A DNA stretch of 64,000 nt from Escherichia coli. Its GTDB lineage: Bacteria > Pseudomonadota > Gammaproteobacteria > Enterobacterales > Enterobacteriaceae. A program made the position numbers and the translations under genes. This document shows positions 44,610 through 53,399 of the stretch, in pieces. Position 1 is the stretch's first letter. Every line of letters starts with the position of its first letter. Location: the NCBI RefSeq assembly GCF_001677475.2, contig NZ_CP015229.1; one strand, given 5' to 3'. The notes below the pieces were generated by a model, which saw only the letters and a list, made by a program, of their open reading frames with translations, did no database searches and was not told the origin of the DNA.

Positions 44610-46376
44610 ATGAATAATTCTATTAACCATAAATTTCATCACATTAGCCGGGCTGAATACCAGGAATTGTTAGCCGTTTCCCGTGGCGACGCTGTTGCCG
44701 ATTATATTATTGATAATGTCTCTATTCTCGACCTGATCAATGGCGGAGAAATTTCCGGCCCAATTGTGATTAAAGGACGTTACATTGCCGGTGTTGGCGC
44801 AGAATACACTGATGCTCCGGCTTTGCAGCGGATTGATGCCCGCGGCGCAACGGCGGTGCCAGGGTTTATTGATGCTCACCTGCATATTGAATCCAGCATG
44901 ATGACGCCGGTCACCTTTGAAACCGCTACCCTGCCGCGCGGCCTGACGACCGTTATTTGCGACCCTCATGAAATCGTCAACGTGATGGGCGAAGCCGGAT
45001 TCGCCTGGTTTGCCCGCTGTGCCGAACAGGCAAGGCAAAACCAGTACTTACAGGTCAGCTCTTGCGTACCCGCCCTGGAAGGCTGCGATGTTAACGGTGC
45101 CAGTTTTACCCTTGAACAGATGCTCGCCTGGCGGGACCATCCGCAGGTTACCGGCCTTGCAGAAATGATGGACTACCCTGGCGTAATTAGCGGGCAGAAT
45201 GCGCTGCTCGATAAACTGGATGCATTTCGCCACCTGACGCTGGACGGTCACTGCCCGGGTTTGGGTGGTAAAGAACTTAACGCCTATATTGCTGCGGGTA
45301 TTGAAAACTGCCACGAAAGTTATCAGCTGGAAGAAGGACGCCGGAAATTACAACTCGGTATGTCGTTGATGATCCGCGAAGGGTCCGCTGCCCGCAATCT
45401 CAACGCTCTGGCACCGTTGATCAACGAATTTAACAGCCCGCAATGCATGCTCTGTACCGATGACCGTAACCCGTGGGAGATCGCCCATGAAGGACACATC
45501 GATGCCTTAATTCGCCGCCTGATCGAACAACACAATGTGCCGCTGCATGTGGCATATCGCGTCGCCAGCTGGTCGACGGCGCGCCATTTTGGTCTGAATC
45601 ACCTCGGCTTACTGGCACCCGGCAAGCAGGCCGATATCGTCCTGTTGAGCGATGCGCGTAAGGTCACGGTGCAGCAGGTACTGGTGAAAGGCGAGCCGAT
45701 TGATGCGCAAACCTTACAGGCGGAAGAGTCGGCGAGACTGGCACAATCCGCTCCGCCGTATGGCAATACCATTGCCCGCCAGCCCGTTTCCGCCAGCGAC
45801 TTTGCCCTGCAATTCACGCCCGGAAAACGCTATCGGGTCATTGACGTCATCCATAACGAATTGATTACGCACTCCCGCTCCAGCGTCTATAGCGAAAATG
45901 GTTTTGATCGCGATGATGTGTGCTTTATTGCCGTACTTGAGCGTTACGGGCAACGGCTGGCTCCGGCCTGTGGTTTGCTCGGCGGCTTTGGCCTGAATGA
46001 AGGTGCGCTGGCTGCGACGGTCAGCCATGACAGCCATAATATTGTGGTGATCGGTCGCAGTGCGGAAGAGATGGCGCTGGCGGTCAATCAGGTGATTCAG
46101 GATGGCGGCGGGCTGTGCGTGGTACGTAACGGCCAGGTACAAAGTCATCTGCCGTTACCAATTGCAGGGCTGATGAGCACCGACACGGCGCAGTCGCTGG
46201 CGGAGCAAATTGACGCCTTGAAAGCCGCCGCCCGTGAATGCGGTCCGTTACCCGATGAGCCGTTTATTCAGATGGCGTTTCTTTCCCTGCCAGTGATCCC
46301 CGCGCTGAAACTAACCAGCCAGGGGCTGTTTGATGGCGAGAAGTTTGCCTTCACCACGCTGGAAGTCACGGAATGA
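44610..46376 (+). CDS. ade: Adenine deaminase
   Basis: 588 aa amidohydrolase with metal-binding HxH ([12 protein letters not shown]); length and position match K-12 ade. Confidence 0.9.
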
Positions 46377-46378
46377 AA

Positions 46379-46572
46379 AAAAGACCGTATTAGCTGATTT
46401 ACGGAAAATATGTACTCCACAAGCGTCAATATCAGACGAGGCCTGGGAAAAGATGATGTTGTCTGATGAAAGTAATCAGCAGCACATCCGTGAGGCTATT
46501 GTGGCGATGGAACGCAATAACCAGAAAAATTACTGGGAAGCGTTAGGCAAGGTTGAATGCCCGGATATGTAG
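46379..46572 (+). pseudogene. Truncated yicS paralog (C-terminal ~63 codons, no signal peptide)
   Basis: Encodes ...KKTVLADLRKICTPQASISDEAWEKMMLSDESNQQHIREAIVAMERNNQKNYWEALGKVECPDM, about 80% identical at nucleotide level to the 3' part of yicS (23890-24082); the N-terminal signal peptide is missing and the frame runs back into the ade 3' end. Confidence 0.7.
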
Positions 46573-46607
46573 ACGTGAAGCCGCAGCTTCACGTCTACAT
46601 TTAGCAC

Positions 46608-47564
46608 TTAACGTGAACGTATATCGGGAATAATTAAATCACCACGCAGAACATATGAACCCAGCATCGTCTGTGTCTTCTCGTTAAGCCAACTGACTAT
46701 CCGGGCGGCCATTTCGTCCAGCGAATACTCTATCGCCGGAATGGTCGGTATCCCCGGAAGATGAACAGTACCCGCCAGACTAAATACCATAATGTCCTCA
46801 GGAACAGATTTATTAAACGCCTGCAATTGCGGTATCACCCGCTGCGCTTGCTGTTCATCAGCAACTAATAACGCATTAAAGTTCAGTGTTGAGGCGTTAT
46901 TTAGCAGCTCCTGCAAAGCCACTGAGGAAGATATTGCTTCCATAAAAACCAGATTACGGTTAAAGGGAAGAAAGTTTTTCTCCAGCGCGTGTTTATAGCC
47001 CAGTAAGACCTGGTCAGAAAATCCCATACCGTGTGGGTGGATGAGGGCGATTTGTCGTCTGTTCTGACTTATCAGATAGTTACAAGCGGTTTCAGTCGCG
47101 AATGTGTGATCGAACTGAATACTGTTAACATCATTACCCGTCTCAAGGCAGTCCACCAGTATCACGTTTTCCTGATGAATATTCAGTGGGAAACGCGCAC
47201 CAATAATCAGTACGTCATCACACAAACCACAGCTCAGCTCATCAAGGGCGTTCTTTACCTCGGCTTTATTGCTGGCGAAGCGAAGAAGTAGATGTTTTTG
47301 ATGCTGGCTGAGATGTTTTTCCAGAGCGTAAAGATAACCGGTGGTCTGATTAATGTTTTCCTGAGCACAAATTACACCGATACAGCCCGTAGATTGCGTC
47401 AGCAGTGACTGCGCAATGACATTGGGACGATAGTTTAGCTCTTCGACGGCTTTCAATACCGCGAGACGGCTGGCTTCTTTAACACCACGCGATCCGCTCA
47501 ACACCCGAGAAACCGTCGCTTTTGAAACGCCAGCCAAACGCGATACATCATTGATAGTAGACAT
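46608..47564 (-). CDS. LacI/GalR-family transcriptional repressor
   Basis: N-terminal HTH MSTINDVSRLAGVSKATVSRVLSG followed by a periplasmic-binding-protein-like sugar-binding domain; SD GGGGAG before the chosen ATG; divergent from the PTS operon. Confidence 0.8.
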   Translation of the reverse strand: MSTINDVSRLAGVSKATVSRVLSGSRGVKEASRLAVLKAVEELNYRPNVIAQSLLTQSTGCIGVICAQENINQTTGYLYALEKHLSQHQKHLLLRFASNKAEVKNALDELSCGLCDDVLIIGARFPLNIHQENVILVDCLETGNDVNSIQFDHTFATETACNYLISQNRRQIALIHPHGMGFSDQVLLGYKHALEKNFLPFNRNLVFMEAISSSVALQELLNNASTLNFNALLVADEQQAQRVIPQLQAFNKSVPEDIMVFSLAGTVHLPGIPTIPAIEYSLDEMAARIVSWLNEKTQTMLGSYVLRGDLIIPDIRSR

Positions 47565-47855
47565 CATTCTCCCCTGACAGAGCGGCCCTGGCTCCCACAA
47601 TCCTGAATTCCTGTTGGCTTAAATATTAGCCATTCGCAGTATAACTGTTTCCGTTTTTTAATGGAAACCGATTTTCCATGACACCTCAAAACTGAGCTAA
47701 TAATGATAAAGATGTGAACAGAATCGAAATATTAACGCGACTTTATAGCGAAATCGGATAGCCGTCACAGTTTGTGTTTCCATGAATGGAAACCGGTTTC
47801 CAAATGATATCAAATCAATTGCGAAATAGATTTTTACATTCAGAGGATGTGTCAG

Positions 47856-48170
47856 ATGGTCAGGATTATGTTGTGTTGCTCTGCGGGGATGTCAACCAGT
47901 CTGCTGGTGAAAAAAATGGTCGAGGCCGCAGAAAGCAGAGAGCTACCGGTAGAGATAGATGCCTACGGAGTTTCCGAATTTGATATTCAGTTTCCAAAAT
48001 ATCAGGTGGTGCTACTCGGACCGCAGGTAAAGTATATGTTAAACATGCTCGCAGAAAAGGCCGCCCCCCAGGGAATACCCGTAAAAGCCATTGATATGGC
48101 GGACTACGGAATGCAACGGGGTGACAAGGTGCTGGATTACGCTCTGTCGCTCATTGCAGCGACACATTAG
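47856..48170 (+). CDS. PTS EIIB, lactose/cellobiose family
   Basis: About 104 aa with N-terminal MVRIMLCCSAGMSTS (active-site Cys motif typical of IIB-Cel/Lac). Confidence 0.8.
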   Translation: MVRIMLCCSAGMSTSLLVKKMVEAAESRELPVEIDAYGVSEFDIQFPKYQVVLLGPQVKYMLNMLAEKAAPQGIPVKAIDMADYGMQRGDKVLDYALSLIAATH

Positions 48171-48182
48171 AAAGGTGTCATT

Positions 48183-49514
48183 ATGAGTTCGTTATATCAA
48201 TCAATGGTTGCCGTTATTGAACAATCCATCACACCGCTTGCCGGGAAGCTGGGGCAGCAAAAATATGTGATTGCCATCCGGGACGGTTTTACTGCCGCTC
48301 TACCGTTTATGATCATCGGTTCGTTTATGCTGGTGTTCATTTTCCCACCGTTTTCGGCTGAAACAACCAACAGTTTTGCCCGAGGCTGGCTGGATTTCTC
48401 CGCCACCTACCGTGAACAGCTAATGTTGCCATTTAACCTCAGTATGGGAGTGATGACTTTCTTCATCTCAGTAGGAATCGGTGCCAGCCTTGGGCGACAG
48501 TTTAATCTCGATCCGATTATGTCTGGCTTGCTGGCATTTATGGCATTTTTACTGGTCGCAGCGCCTTACGCTGACGGCAAGATATCGACTCAATATCTTT
48601 CCGGGCAAGGTATTTTCACGTCGCTGATTACTGCGATTTATGCCACTCGTGTGTACGCCTGGTTAAAACAACACAACGTGACAATCCGCTTACCCAAAGA
48701 AGTCCCTACTGGGGTGGCGCGTTCCTTTGAGATCCTTATCCCGGTTCTGGTGGTCATTGCTACGCTACACCCACTGAATCTGTTTATTGAGGCCCAGACT
48801 GGAATGATTATTCCTGAGGCGATCATGCATCTTTTAGCGCCACTGGTCTCTGCCTCTGATTCCCTGCCTGCAATTCTGCTGTCTGTTCTGATGTGTCAGA
48901 TTTTCTGGTTCGCAGGTATTCATGGTTCACTGATTGTAACCGGCATCATGAATCCCTTCTGGATGGCAAACCTGTCGGCAAATCAGGCAGCTCTTGCCGC
49001 TGGCGCAGCACTTCCTCACGTTTATCTGCAAGGTTTTTGGGATCACTACCTGCTGATTGGTGGTGTCGGCTCGACGCTACCGCTGGCGTTCTTGCTGTTA
49101 CGCAGTCGCGTTGCTCACTTGCGCACCATCGGAAAAATGGGCGTTGTCCCCAGTTTTTTCAACATTAATGAGCCTATTCTGTTCGGTGCGCCGATCATCA
49201 TGAATCCGATGTTGTTTATCCCGTTCGTTTTCGTGCCAATTATTAACGCCATCCTGGCCTATACCGCGACCAGACTGGGCTGGCTGGCACAGGTTGTCTC
49301 ATTAACGCCATGGACCACACCTGCTCCAATTGGTGCCTCCTGGGCTGCCAACTGGGCACTTAGCCCGGTAGTGATGTGCATTATCTGTATGGTGATGTCG
49401 GCGCTGATGTACCTCCCATTCTTGCGCGCCTATGAACGCTCATTGCTAAAAAGCGAAGAACAAAAAGCGCAGGATACCGTCTCCGTGGCCAATGCAGCCC
49501 GTAGCAACTCATAA
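48183..49514 (+). CDS. PTS EIIC permease, lactose/cellobiose family
   Basis: 443 aa polytopic membrane protein directly following IIB; size and hydropathy typical of ChbC-type IIC. Confidence 0.8.
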   Translation: MSSLYQSMVAVIEQSITPLAGKLGQQKYVIAIRDGFTAALPFMIIGSFMLVFIFPPFSAETTNSFARGWLDFSATYREQLMLPFNLSMGVMTFFISVGIGASLGRQFNLDPIMSGLLAFMAFLLVAAPYADGKISTQYLSGQGIFTSLITAIYATRVYAWLKQHNVTIRLPKEVPTGVARSFEILIPVLVVIATLHPLNLFIEAQTGMIIPEAIMHLLAPLVSASDSLPAILLSVLMCQIFWFAGIHGSLIVTGIMNPFWMANLSANQAALAAGAALPHVYLQGFWDHYLLIGGVGSTLPLAFLLLRSRVAHLRTIGKMGVVPSFFNINEPILFGAPIIMNPMLFIPFVFVPIINAILAYTATRLGWLAQVVSLTPWTTPAPIGASWAANWALSPVVMCIICMVMSALMYLPFLRAYERSLLKSEEQKAQDTVSVANAARSNS

Positions 49515-49534
49515 TGAATCAAGGAGTAAGAACA

Positions 49535-50932
49535 ATGAGATACCGTTTTCCCGACAACTTCTGGTGGGGTAGTGCCTGCTCTGCGCTGCAAACCGAAGGG
49601 GATAGTCTGAACGGCGGCAAAAGCCAAACCACCTGGGATGTATGGTTCGAGCGCCAGCCAGGCCGCTTCCATCAAGGTATTGGCCCGGCGAACACATCAA
49701 CCTTTTATCAACACTGGCAACAAGATATTGCCCTGCTGAAACAGTTAAAACATAACAGTTTTCGCACCTCGTTAAGCTGGTCTCGCCTGATACCAGACGG
49801 TACTGGTGACGTAAATCCTGAAGCGGTGGCGTTCTATAACAATGTCATCGACGAGCTGCTGGCGCAGGGCATCACACCGTTTATCACCTTGTTCCACTTT
49901 GATATGCCGATGGTGATGCAGGAAAAAGGTGGCTGGGAGAGTCGTGAAGTCGTAGAAGCTTTTGGTGAATATGCCCGTACCTGCTTTGAACTGTTCGGCA
50001 ACAGAGTGAAGCACTGGTTTACCTTTAACGAACCGATTGTGCCGGTAGAGGGCGGTTATTTATATGACTTCCACTATCCGAACGTTGTTGATTTTAAACG
50101 TGCTGCGACAGTGGCTTACCATACCGTTCTTGCGCACGCCACGGCAGTTCGGGCATTTCGCCGCGGTAATTTCGAAGGTGAAATTGGCGTGGTGCTCAAC
50201 CTGACGCCTTCTTATCCGCGCTCGCAAAATCCGGCTGATGTTAAAGCCGCACACTGCGCTGACCTTCTGTTTAACCGCAGCTTCCTCGATCCGGTGCTAA
50301 AAGGAGAATACCCGGCAGACCTTGTAGCATTACTGAAAGAGTACGATCAGTTGCCGCAATGCCAGCCTGACGATAGTCAGCTAATCGCCGACGGAAAAAT
50401 CGACCTGCTGGGGATAAATTATTATCAACCCCGTCGAGTTAAATGCCGGGATAGCGCCGTAAACCCCAATGCTCCCTTTATGCCGGAGTGGTTATTTGAC
50501 TATTACGAGATGCCTGGGCGAAAAATGAATCCTTATCGGGGATGGGAAATTTATGAACCCGGTATTTACGATATCATCACCAATCTTCGCGATAATTATG
50601 GTAATCCTCGTTGTTTTATTTCTGAAAATGGGATGGGTGTAGAAAACGAGCAACGTTTTATTCAGGAAGGGCAAGTCAACGATAGCTATCGTATTGAATT
50701 TGTCGCTGAACATTTAAAATGGCTGCATAAAGGAATTAGCGAAGGGTGTAATTGCCTTGGCTATCATATGTGGACGTTTATCGATAACTGGTCATGGCTT
50801 AATGCTTATAAAAATCGCTATGGATTTGTTCAGCTTGATCTGGAAACGCAAACACGCACGATTAAAAAAAGTGGTGAGTGGTTTGCGACAGTTGCAGAAA
50901 ATAACGGTTTTGATTGCGAGAAACAAAAATGA
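49535..50932 (+). CDS. Glycoside hydrolase family 1, 6-phospho-beta-glucosidase/galactosidase
   Basis: GH1 signatures FPDNFWWGSACSALQTEG, acid/base TFNEP and nucleophile ISENGMG; SD AAGGAG 8 nt before ATG at 49535 (the track ORF begins at 49514). Confidence 0.85.
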   Translation: MRYRFPDNFWWGSACSALQTEGDSLNGGKSQTTWDVWFERQPGRFHQGIGPANTSTFYQHWQQDIALLKQLKHNSFRTSLSWSRLIPDGTGDVNPEAVAFYNNVIDELLAQGITPFITLFHFDMPMVMQEKGGWESREVVEAFGEYARTCFELFGNRVKHWFTFNEPIVPVEGGYLYDFHYPNVVDFKRAATVAYHTVLAHATAVRAFRRGNFEGEIGVVLNLTPSYPRSQNPADVKAAHCADLLFNRSFLDPVLKGEYPADLVALLKEYDQLPQCQPDDSQLIADGKIDLLGINYYQPRRVKCRDSAVNPNAPFMPEWLFDYYEMPGRKMNPYRGWEIYEPGIYDIITNLRDNYGNPRCFISENGMGVENEQRFIQEGQVNDSYRIEFVAEHLKWLHKGISEGCNCLGYHMWTFIDNWSWLNAYKNRYGFVQLDLETQTRTIKKSGEWFATVAENNGFDCEKQK

Positions 50933-51231
50933 TCGAACTAGAAGATGCTGTTATGGAAATAATCGTCAATGCCGGCCAGTCACGCAGCCTCTGTTTTGAA
51001 GCGTTACACGCGGCACGTGCCGGGAACTTTGATGAAGCCAAACAGCTGCTACATGAAGCTGACGGTTATTCGCGTCAGGCTCACCATATGCAAACCAAAT
51101 TGATCGAACAGGATGCTGGTGAGGCCCGTCAGCCAATGACATTAATTATGGTACATGCACAGGATCATTTAATGACATCGATGCTGGCACGAGAATTAGC
51201 AGAAGAAATAATTCATCTTTATCAAAGATAA
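50929..51231 (+). CDS. PTS EIIA, lactose/cellobiose family
   Basis: About 100 aa (MIELEDAVMEIIVNAGQSRS...AHHMQTKLIEQDAG...); ATGA overlap with the upstream stop. Confidence 0.8.
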   Translation: MIELEDAVMEIIVNAGQSRSLCFEALHAARAGNFDEAKQLLHEADGYSRQAHHMQTKLIEQDAGEARQPMTLIMVHAQDHLMTSMLARELAEEIIHLYQR

Positions 51232-51432
51232 TTAATTAATGCTTAGTGAGGAACATCTATTTGATAAAATAAAACCCCTGCTTTACCCAAGAATAAAATA
51301 GATAAACCACCCTGTTTCGGCAGTTAAAAACAAACCGAAACAGGCTGCTTATTATCATAAAACAAATTAATACACACCTTATATTTATTATGCCTAACGC
51401 ATAATGAATTATAACGTGTGCGTGAGATAATT

Positions 51433-52812
51433 ATGAAAAAGATAAATACACTTCCAGTTACCCTAGCGGTTATTGCCGCTTTGTACTCAATATCTGCCCA
51501 AGCTCAGGAATTTACTCAGGAACAAATAGACGCCATTGTGGCAAAAGCCGTCGATAAAGCATTAGCCGAAAGGCAAGAAAAAATGGATGCCGCGGCAGCG
51601 AAAAAAGTGGATGTTATTAACGAACCGGAAAGTGCTGCGCAGTCTCCGGATATGGCAATTCCCTTTGGCGTAAAATTTAGTGGTTATGCCCGTTATGGGG
51701 CTCACTTTCAAAGCGGCGATCAAAAATATGTTGCTGTAGACGGCTCCTATAATGGTGCATCTGCAATTGGTCGTCTGGGGAACGAAGGTAACGGCGGAGA
51801 GTTTCAGTTATCAAAAGCCTTCAAGAGCGATAACGGCGCAATCTGGGATGTCAATGTCATGATTGATCACTGGGGCGACGAAGTTAACCTGAAAAAAGCC
51901 TACGCTGGTGTCACCAATGTTTTGGCATCCAATCCTGACGCCTATATCTGGGCTGGTCGTGACTTCCACCAGCGCCCGCAACAGGGCATTAATGACTACT
52001 TCTGGATGACTCACGATGGTCAGGGTGCCGGGGTGAAAAATTTCGACATTGGTGGCATCAAGTTTGACCTTGCTACTGTCGCAGCGGTTGAATCCTGTAA
52101 TCCTGAAGTGATGGAGGATGAGACCAATCCGTCACGCATTACCTGTACTGGCGGGTCAGGAACGGGCGACAAAGGCAATTATGCGGTAACGTCCAAAATC
52201 CATGGTATGAAACTGGGGCCACTGGATCTTGAGTTGTACGCTAACTACGGCTTCGACTCAAAAGCGGTCGAAGGTGAAGACAAACTGAAAGCCTGGCAGG
52301 GGGCATTTGTTGTAAGCCATAGCAATGACAGCGGAGTGAATAAAGTCATTGCCCGCTACTCTGATAATTCCGATAACAGTGTTTACAATAAAACTGACGA
52401 TCTCACGACAATTTACGCCAGTTTTGAAGGTAGTCATAAATTTACCCAGCAGGCGCAAATCGAGTATTTACTGGCCTTCCATGATTACGACAACAGTTCT
52501 ATTAAGAGTGATAACCGCAAAAACTATGGCGTAATTGTCCGTCCTATGTATTTCTGGAATGACGTTCACTCCACCTGGCTTGAGGCGGGTTATCAACGGG
52601 TTGATTATGATAAAGGCGGAGATAATTCCGGCTGGAAGCTGACGCTGTCACAGAACATTTCTATTGCGATGGGCCCGGAATTCCGCCCAATGCTACGTTT
52701 CTACATGACGGGCGGGCAAGTTGATAATGACCGGACTGCACGCGTCAACGGTACAAAAGAGGAAACGCTTGACGACTTTAACCTTGGCGCGATGTGGGAA
52801 GCCTGGTTCTGA
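51433..52812 (+). CDS. LamB-family carbohydrate-specific outer-membrane porin
   Basis: Signal peptide MKKINTLPVTLAVIAALYSISAQA; IWAGRDFHQRPQQGINDYFWMTHDGQGAG parallels the maltoporin greasy-slide region; C-terminal ...GAMWEAWF aromatic end. Confidence 0.75.
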   Translation: MKKINTLPVTLAVIAALYSISAQAQEFTQEQIDAIVAKAVDKALAERQEKMDAAAAKKVDVINEPESAAQSPDMAIPFGVKFSGYARYGAHFQSGDQKYVAVDGSYNGASAIGRLGNEGNGGEFQLSKAFKSDNGAIWDVNVMIDHWGDEVNLKKAYAGVTNVLASNPDAYIWAGRDFHQRPQQGINDYFWMTHDGQGAGVKNFDIGGIKFDLATVAAVESCNPEVMEDETNPSRITCTGGSGTGDKGNYAVTSKIHGMKLGPLDLELYANYGFDSKAVEGEDKLKAWQGAFVVSHSNDSGVNKVIARYSDNSDNSVYNKTDDLTTIYASFEGSHKFTQQAQIEYLLAFHDYDNSSIKSDNRKNYGVIVRPMYFWNDVHSTWLEAGYQRVDYDKGGDNSGWKLTLSQNISIAMGPEFRPMLRFYMTGGQVDNDRTARVNGTKEETLDDFNLGAMWEAWF

Positions 52813-52830
52813 CAGGCCACTCACATTGAG

Positions 52831-53283
52831 TTAATGCAACCAAAACACGCCTTCTTCTGGCTGGAAGAGGGCGTTATAGCGCATTTGGAAGGCATTAATC
52901 TCCTGCATATCTGGCTCTAACTCACGGAGAAAACCCAGCGCCAGACGGACCTGGGCATCAGTGATCGGCGCAGCAAGACGCGCTTTTTGCAACAACCGAT
53001 GCCAACGTAACAGGTTCTGCTCACTACCATCGACAATCACAATTTGCCAGATAAGTAACACCTGAGCAGCATTTTGCAGATGAGATTCATCCGGGCGATG
53101 CAAATAATACAAAAACTCTTTACCAGGCATTTTACCCATCTGATCGATCATCGATTCTACGGGTACAACATCAATATTAAGTCGTTCGCTTAAACGGCGA
53201 ATCGCCCGTCGGGTGCCTGACGTCAGAACCCGAAAACCAACCACAAACACCACCACGACGGTGGCAAGCATTATCCAGATCAT
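52831..53283 (-). CDS. DUF1198 membrane protein, yicN paralog (150 aa)
   Basis: Roughly 85% identical at protein level to the yicN at 42596-43048 by eye; lies between the porin gene and uhpT. Confidence 0.8.
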   Translation of the reverse strand: MIWIMLATVVVVFVVGFRVLTSGTRRAIRRLSERLNIDVVPVESMIDQMGKMPGKEFLYYLHRPDESHLQNAAQVLLIWQIVIVDGSEQNLLRWHRLLQKARLAAPITDAQVRLALGFLRELEPDMQEINAFQMRYNALFQPEEGVFWLH

Positions 53284-53399
53284 GCGTTCTCCTGCGCATC
53301 AACTTTTGATGATATCTGGAAAACTCCCCCAGGCGTTAATCTGGTCAAATTGAATAAAAAAAGCCCGGCGTCATGCCGGGCAAAAGTCACCAGTTACGT

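Follow-up and report, generated by a model that had tools for sequence, protein, structure and literature searches.

We identified, in the 64,000-nucleotide stretch of an Escherichia coli genome analysed here (the window), an accessory island between adeD and uhpT. It encodes a phosphotransferase system (PTS) of the lactose/cellobiose family, a glycoside hydrolase of family 1 (GH1), a LamB-family porin and a LacI-family repressor. On balance, we favour the reading that it provides a self-contained, inducible pathway for using a beta-1,4-linked hexose disaccharide of plant cell walls, and that this route was regained in E. coli. By its sequence this is a structurally ordinary operon of its PTS family, one that is frequent among Enterobacterales and that few E. 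coli carry. The substrate is probably a beta-linked plant disaccharide, with cellobiose, glucosyl-mannose and mannobiose as the leading candidates. The bgl, asc, chb and bgc operons of E. coli have long served as a model for catabolic genes that are cryptic or accessory, and the island adds a separate system to them: an operon common in related genera, missing from the usual site in E. coli and apparently regained elsewhere in a few lineages. If the sugar is a mannan or glucomannan disaccharide, this carbon source would separate rare E. coli lineages, as well as many Enterobacter, Citrobacter, Kosakonia, Pantoea and Yersinia, from ordinary E. coli, and genes now annotated generically would gain a name and a function. 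The practical consequences are modest, since both the kinds of component and the way they work together are familiar.

The block comprises six genes, for which we used the gene models that RefSeq gives for the closest E. coli copy. The LacI-family repressor gene (318 amino acids; minus strand, 46608-47564; NCBIfam LacI-family match, 5.7e-29) is divergent from five genes on the plus strand. These encode the PTS enzyme IIB (EIIB; 104 amino acids; 47856-48170; TIGR00853, 2.1e-26), EIIC (443 amino acids; 48183-49514; TIGR00410, 367 bits), the GH1 hydrolase, a predicted 6-phospho-beta-glycosidase (465 amino acids; 49535-50932; NCBIfam GH1 and similarity to SPy1599, PDB entry 4b3k), EIIA (100 amino acids; 50929-51231; TIGR00823, 3.7e-35) and the LamB-family outer-membrane sugar porin (459 amino acids; 51433-52812; Pfam LamB, E 1.5e-73). 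An earlier, sequence-only reading of this DNA had proposed the same order, strands and coordinates, and the open reading frame (ORF) list confirms its placement of the GH1 gene between those for IIC and IIA. It had started the regulator at 47600, but the codon there is a TTG upstream of the likely start, an ATG at 47564. The compact packing that it described, with overlapping or adjacent stop and start codons, is also found, as gaps of 12 nt between IIB and IIC and 20 nt between IIC and GH1 and a 4-nt overlap (ATGA) of the GH1 stop with the EIIA start. The exception is a 201-nt spacer (51232-51432) that separates EIIA from the porin gene.

The regulator gives full-length matches to LacI-family models, which cover an N-terminal helix-turn-helix and a periplasmic-binding-protein-like sugar domain. 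EIIC scores above the curated cut-off of TIGR00410 (367 against 236 bits), higher with this cellobiose model than with the lactose (275 bits) or chitobiose models, and carries GIHG and NINEP motifs. The family scores of EIIB and EIIA are under their curated cut-offs (92.6 against 110 and 120 against 137). The EIIB cysteine aligns with the phosphorylation-site Cys10 of ChbB, with the neighbouring motif conserved, and in EIIA the motif VHAQDHLMTSMLAREL is identical around His89, the phosphorylation site of ChbA. The porin has a signal peptide and is extended at its N-terminus by about 60 residues; its residues 82-459 match Pfam PF02264 (LamB) over model positions 1-378 of 378, and maltoporin structures are matched at E 1e-12 to 2e-13. 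In the route that we propose, the sugar would cross the outer membrane via the LamB-type porin and the PTS would import it, phosphorylating its non-reducing unit. The phosphoryl relay would run from phosphoenolpyruvate through enzyme I, HPr, the EIIA histidine and the EIIB cysteine, with EIIC as the channel. Cleavage of the product by the GH1 enzyme would then yield free hexose and hexose 6-phosphate, which host Glk, ManA and possibly Mak would feed into glycolysis. The parts of this route can be read from the genes, and the flow through them we infer.

In a scan of one genome per species, GH1 orthologues that are 77-93% identical were found in many genera, including Citrobacter, Kosakonia, Phytobacter, Enterobacter, Leclercia, Lelliottia, Pantoea, Erwinia, Yersinia, Serratia and Hafnia. 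Repressor orthologues (75-93% identical) occur in at least 70 loci, and operon orthologues are also present in Vibrio and Aeromonas. Most of the loci with a GH1 orthologue have the same order, with the LacI gene followed by IIB-IIC-GH1-IIA-porin; the porin is absent or the regulator lies elsewhere in several Pantoea loci and in a divergent group (Cedecea, an Erwinia metagenome-assembled genome, Pectobacterium and Prodigiosinella). Judged by these comparisons, the operon is conserved across Enterobacterales, Vibrio and Aeromonas, and the island is its E. coli copy. The block is separate from the E. coli systems described before, but the operon is not confined to that species, being widespread in Enterobacterales. 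Among the Pantoea loci, L034 (a P. agglomerans plasmid), L031, L039 and L046 hold an operon without a porin gene, one of them plasmid-borne. Loci of the Citrobacter freundii complex (L008, L009, L012, L029, L089 and L090) carry an orphan GH1 gene between yicS and nepI; these genes are 90-93% identical, and the PTS, porin and regulator genes and the operator are absent there.

The 291-bp divergent region between the LacI and EIIB genes contains conserved palindromes that we read as predicted operators of the LacI repressor. The predicted main operator, O1 (TGGAAACCGGTTTCCA; 47787-47802), is a perfect palindrome located 54 nt upstream of the EIIB start codon and its sole perfect match in the window, where 0.24 chance matches with at most three mismatches are expected. 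The predicted operator O2 (47662-47678) is an imperfect copy (TGGAAACCGATTTTCCA) that overlaps the -35 hexamer of the predicted repressor-gene promoter. This is a promoter-like site on the minus strand, from 47667 to 47638 (TTTCCA, 18 nt, TATACT), with the -10 hexamer in a conserved block. Nearly every operon-bearing locus has exactly one good match to the palindrome (at most two mismatches), about 65 bp upstream of EIIB, and none was found in loci holding the GH1 gene alone when all fetched loci were scanned. The same palindrome stands upstream of EIIB or PTS genes in Vibrio and Aeromonas.

In an alignment of 68 intergenic regions from several families, O1 and O2 are the most conserved blocks, O2 being present in most of the regions. 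The blocks TGTGA, TCGA and GTCACAG and the EIIB ribosome-binding site are conserved as well. These footprints include two CRP-like half-conserved sites at 47713-47728 (TGTGA-N6-TCGAA) and 47754-47769 (TCGGA-N6-TCACA), which we assign to CRP by inference from the consensus TGTGA-N6-TCACA. We propose that the repressor binds the two palindromes, one overlapping the operon promoter and the other the repressor's own promoter, and is probably released by the phosphorylated disaccharide, while CRP with cyclic AMP probably activates the operon. The conserved operator offers a ready test of this regulation. The nearest catalogued regulator is that of the CelR3 regulon of Vibrionales in RegPrecise, a computational prediction of cellobiose use with cellobiose-6-phosphate as effector; the repressor is 39% identical to CelR3 of Photobacterium, with a nearly identical helix-turn-helix region. 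We considered membership of the RegPrecise CelR groups and rejected it, as CelR and CelR2 (26-30%) and CelR3 (39%) include no clear orthologue. The RegPrecise supplementary tables examined list no CelR3 member from Enterobacterales.

Based on protein comparisons with bgc from the CFT073 genome and with chb, bgl and asc from K-12, the island is a system separate from all four. Identity to the island proteins is 26-52% for Chb, Bgl and Asc and 26-44% for Bgc. These values agree with the earlier statements that the block is not bgl, asc or chb and that it resembles bgc with another gene order and regulator type; none of the four operons combined high identity with the same order, and the block is absent from K-12. 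The best matches are ChbB (46%) and BgcE (42%) for EIIB, ChbC and BgcF (both 30%) for EIIC, ChbA (52%) and BgcI (44%) for EIIA, and AscB (34%), BgcA (30%) and BglB (30%) for the GH1 enzyme. The porin gives partial matches of 26-34% to BglH and BgcH (BgcH 26% over 100 residues). AscG (26%) is the only protein in the K-12 and CFT073 comparison set that matches the repressor.

The bgc operon (bgcEFIHA with bgcR) is an accessory beta-glucoside system of extraintestinal pathogenic E. coli (PMC3585215). Like the block described here, it is an accessory island with a three-protein lactose/cellobiose-family PTS, a GH1 enzyme, a LamB-family porin and a divergent regulator. However, in CFT073 it lies between marB and eamA rather than between adeD and uhpT, its order is IIB-IIC-IIA-porin-GH1, and its regulator BgcR is a GntR-type activator whereas the island has a LacI-type repressor. 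The chb operon (chbBCARFG, formerly cel) has a PTS of the same family, and ChbA and ChbB are the closest K-12 paralogues of EIIA and EIIB. Unlike the island, chb acts on chitobiose, with the GH4 enzyme ChbF, the deacetylase ChbG, the AraC-type regulator ChbR and no porin in the operon; the island has no counterparts of ChbF, ChbG or ChbR. The asc genes (ascG-ascFB) share with the island a divergent LacI-family repressor and a GH1 enzyme, AscB being the closest in K-12, but their transporter is a fused EIIBC of the glucose/beta-glucoside family and there is no porin.

Among solved structures, SPy1599 of Streptococcus pyogenes (PDB 4B3K) is the best relative of the GH1 enzyme, with 50% identity over 453 residues (E 2e-150). 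The catalytic motifs NEP (from residue 165, with Glu166) and ENG (with Glu364) align with those of SPy1599, and the C-terminal motif WSWLNAYKNRYG in the surroundings of the phosphate pocket is identical in both. The phosphate-pocket motif DNWSWLNAYKNRYG matches DGWSWLNAYKNRYG of SPy1599, which fits the phospho-glycosidase class. The pocket residues themselves, a serine replacing the glutamate of non-phospho enzymes, a lysine and a tyrosine, are presumably those of LacG, from which we assigned them. Stepper et al. 2013 (cited in PMC9075583) name SPy1599 as a 6-phospho-beta-glucosidase in their title. It comes from a Gram-positive species, where it is encoded in another gene neighbourhood than the island GH1, and its natural substrate is reportedly likewise unknown. 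Source databases label close orthologues of the island enzyme as GmuD. The enzyme belongs to this SPy1599/GmuD-labelled branch and not to the branch of BglA, BglB and AscB.

A mannan connection comes from Aeromonas caviae, where the orthologues of EIIB, EIIC and GH1 are 72-73% identical, that of EIIA is 60% identical and the gene order is the same. Downstream in this cluster lie a ROK kinase gene, a LamB porin gene and genes for two GH5 enzymes, one of which has a CBM35 module; among solved structures, beta-mannanases are the best relatives of both. The palindrome is found before EIIB and also before the gene for mannose-6-phosphate isomerase, with three matches against 0.04 expected. The gmu operon of Bacillus subtilis, with the GmuBAC PTS, the GH1 enzyme GmuD, the kinase GmuE, the isomerase GmuF and the mannanase GmuG, likewise combines a lactose/cellobiose-family PTS with a GH1 enzyme, and the Aeromonas cluster has the full gmu gene set of PTS, GH1, ROK kinase, mannose-6-phosphate isomerase and mannanases. 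The gmu regulator GmuR is of GntR type whereas that of the island is of LacI type, and the island has a porin, as expected for a Gram-negative host. Because the GH1 enzyme is closest to SPy1599 and the Aeromonas beta-mannan locus has the same operator, cellobiose and the disaccharides derived from glucomannan or mannan are the leading candidates for the substrate. The earlier label of a beta-glucoside-type system is not established, given the branch of the GH1 enzyme and the Aeromonas beta-mannan locus.

A bolder and less likely proposal is that the operon is a Gram-negative counterpart of gmu: a PTS for disaccharides of beta-mannan or glucomannan that most E. coli lack. Regaining it at an ectopic site would allow a small set of E. 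coli lineages to cross-feed in the gut on products of dietary mannan breakdown, with a conserved mRNA element masking the ribosome-binding site of the porin gene and so setting porin output. The literature searched contains no description of such a PTS route for mannan in Enterobacteriaceae. A 'GH1 beta-mannanase' of Enterobacter aerogenes was considered as a relative and rejected by size and architecture, not by sequence comparison: it has 731 residues with a carbohydrate-binding module (PMC7362650), against 465 residues in the island enzyme.

The operon could instead be a classical beta-glucoside system, for cellobiose and/or arbutin and salicin only, equivalent to bgc, asc or bgl and with no mannan role in Enterobacteriaceae. 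We regard this as possible but rather doubtful. EIIC fits best with the cellobiose model, SPy1599 is a 6-phospho-beta-glucosidase, RegPrecise predicts cellobiose use for the nearest regulator group, and in Enterobacterales the operon is unaccompanied by mannan-related genes. The operon-bearing genera also include classically cellobiose-positive ones. The Aeromonas cluster and the shared operator, however, take in mannose-6-phosphate isomerase and two mannanase genes, and the GH1 enzyme is only 30-34% identical to AscB, BglB and BgcA. Phenotypes in Citrobacter do not help to decide: the cellobiose-negative type strain of C. werkmanii and the cellobiose-positive C. pasteurii both have the orphan GH1 gene and lack the PTS genes, and the comparison is uninformative because other cellobiose systems exist.

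Several observations weigh against the plant disaccharide route that we favour. Kinase, isomerase and mannanase genes are absent from the ORF list of the island, and in about 80 loci of Enterobacterales there is, with one exception, no mannan gene within 10 kb of the operon. A pair of genes for a ROK kinase and mannose-6-phosphate isomerase lies 5-7 kb away in two Enterobacterales loci; genes for an unrelated PTS, a dehydratase and a GntR regulator stand between this pair and the operon, and we did not count it as linkage. The mannan link comes from one genus, and the PTS and GH1 genes of Vibrio occur without mannan genes. The Aeromonas regulator and porin are 42% and 25% identical to those of the island, and specificity need not be conserved at 72% identity. 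Operator binding, CRP dependence and the RNA element described below are predictions only. No published characterisation of the operon or of any orthologue was found in the literature searched. Finally, the island GH1 has tryptophan at a position that is tryptophan in 6-phospho-beta-galactosidases, so a galacto-configured substrate is possible.

That last observation raises the alternative of beta-galactoside uptake (lactose, lactulose or disaccharides from galactan or galacto-oligosaccharides), with the GH1 enzyme as a 6-phospho-beta-galactosidase or a dual enzyme. The enzyme scores 355 bits with the NCBIfam 6-phospho-beta-galactosidase model, against 195-229 bits with the enterobacterial 6-phospho-beta-glucosidase subfamilies. 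It has Ser-Trp at positions that we take to be Ser428 and Trp429 of LacG. Tryptophan there is said to mark galacto or dual specificity, and BglA-type enzymes have alanine (PMC10360150). The glycon markers conflict, however, as the nearest characterised enzyme is a glucosidase: SPy1599 has the same Ser-Trp and yet is a 6-phospho-beta-glucosidase. EIIC fits the lactose model less well than the cellobiose model, genes of the tagatose-6-phosphate pathway are absent, and the Aeromonas context points to mannan, not galactan. We consider beta-galactoside uptake very unlikely.

With regard to origin, the usual neighbourhood of the operon in Enterobacteriaceae is nlpA-yicS-[operon]-nepI-yicN-(adeQ-adeD)-uhpT, and Citrobacter, Enterobacter, Leclercia and Kosakonia have the order nlpA-yicS-[operon]-nepI-yicN-uhpT. 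In K-12, yicS and nepI are adjacent and the operon is absent. The E. coli copy, at its second site, keeps yicS and yicN pieces of the original neighbourhood, with nepI missing between them. It was probably re-acquired, because it is off the usual site and bounded by yicS and yicN fragments with the divergence of foreign DNA. We propose that the operon is native to the yicS/nepI site of Enterobacteriaceae, a site at which E. coli is without it, and that a few E. coli lineages regained it together with donor flanks, between adeD and the uhpT terminator. The reverse scenario, in which the block is ancestral to E. coli at adeD/uhpT and was deleted in most strains, was rejected because the yicS and yicN flanks are diverged like those of another genus and because, between two carriers, the island is less diverged than the flanking core genes.

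Compared with Citrobacter orthologues, the island genes are 79-84% identical in DNA and the flanking core genes 76-86%; by this measure the donor is not among the sampled species. Between the window and the closest carrier strain, the synonymous divergence (dS) of the island is 0.032, below that of adeQ, adeD, uhpT and uhpC (0.057-0.10). This lower value fits an import from a relative that was not sampled, with recombination then spreading the DNA among E. coli. In E. coli LH50-c (locus L087, 4586-11205), the module is at another chromosomal place, where it adjoins xylA and other sugar genes, and the adeD'-yicS' junction is kept. Its porin gene has a dS of 0.98 and the other five genes 0.01-0.06. 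The LH50-c copy is a recombinant with a mosaic porin gene, as the porin gene is highly diverged and the other five genes are nearly identical.

The location of the block between the ade genes and uhpT, and its absence there in K-12, are as the sequence-only reading had described: the stops of adeD and uhpT in K-12 are 45 bp apart, and this gap consists of the shared terminator and the 3' end of the small RNA UhpU. Homology of the window to K-12 stops at 46387 and restarts at 53353, so the inserted DNA (about 46388-53352, approximately 7 kb) is wider than the block first delimited. The left edge of the import is a 5'-truncated yicS copy (plus strand, 46372-46572) that abuts the adeD stop (46374-46376). 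It is 81% identical to K-12 yicS both in DNA (last 200 bp) and in amino acids (over 74 residues), and RefSeq labels it a partial YicS family pseudogene. The right edge is a second DUF1198 (yicN-like) gene (minus strand, 52831-53283). It is 79% identical to K-12 yicN in DNA and 88% in amino acids; for the resident yicN (42596-43048) the value is 99%.

To the right of the insertion, the resident uhpT terminator and UhpU 3' end are intact (minus strand, 53353-53399), with the terminator hairpin at 53381-53363 and UhpU annotated over the equivalent K-12 bases. A microhomology of about 13 bases, GAAT(G)AAAAAAAG, is common to both junctions. The ORF list shows no integrase or transposase at the island, which also has no tRNA gene, and there are no long direct repeats, the microhomology being all that was found. 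We suggest that the block integrated through the conserved uhpT terminator at one end and by microhomology at the other. The insertion parts adeD from the bidirectional terminator that it shares with uhpT in K-12, and the hairpin stays with uhpT and UhpU. No comparable hairpin follows adeD (46374-46400 in the window), and adeD transcripts may for this reason run antisense into the repressor gene.

The full block is present in 25 of 5,426 complete E. coli genomes (about 0.5%), and two further genomes among them retain a remnant of the porin gene. One of these is 14EC033 (locus L088, 3288-5074), in which IS1 truncates the porin gene and a deletion extends onward to tnaA; what remains is the 3' end of the porin gene and the DUF1198 copy. 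In strain CUWW06, the 3' end of the porin gene alone is left. In the closest E. coli carrier, the DUF1198 copy is a pseudogene.

The window has all six genes intact, and in the annotation read for two full copies RefSeq marks none of them as a pseudogene. Among E. coli copies, the ratio of non-synonymous to synonymous divergence (dN/dS) is 0.02-0.1, with 40 synonymous and 7 non-synonymous changes, and the island genes are under purifying selection. From this the block looks functional rather than cryptic. It is unlikely, although not to the same degree as galactoside uptake, that the island is a silent or decaying passenger in E. coli like the cryptic bgl, asc and chb operons, with no natural phenotype. 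Such a passenger would agree with the rarity of the block, with the degraded copies in 14EC033 (IS1 and deletion) and CUWW06, with the adjoining DUF1198 pseudogene in one strain and with the lower G+C content (0.39-0.45) of the regulatory region and the 3' part of the operon. Low-G+C DNA is typical of genes silenced by H-NS. It agrees poorly with the intact genes and the low dN/dS, or with operators and promoter footprints that match those of genera in which the operon is native.

The spacer between EIIA and the porin gene contains a conserved RNA hairpin (plus strand, 51311-51344; z = -4.84 for the intergenic fold), the arms of which co-vary between genera, with G-U pairs that are workable on the plus strand alone. 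A conserved motif after it (plus strand, 51347-51356), which is GGUUAUUGUC in most genera, is complementary to the ribosome-binding region of the porin gene (51424-51432). There is no Rfam match for the spacer RNA. The hairpin and the motif opposing the ribosome-binding site may tune translation of the porin, and an RNA element of this kind may more generally control porin translation or mRNA processing.

Other parts of the window also differ from K-12. The yicS/nepI junction, the usual site of the operon in related genera, is filled by a different insertion of 16.3 kb (24081-40401). It carries genes for an inverse autotransporter adhesin of 2,933 residues (IatC or EaeX/Air in annotations), for EilA, and for translocon and needle-tip proteins of type III secretion, and at least 80% of its length is present in 36 of the 5,426 complete E. 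coli genomes. Between nepI and yicN there is an insertion of about 840 bp (41681-42520), annotated in the closest genome as a RelE/ParE toxin and a helix-turn-helix antitoxin. Between uhpA and ilvN, about 3.4 kb (58530-61927) has no K-12 counterpart, and the closest genome has a frameshifted hypothetical gene annotated there.

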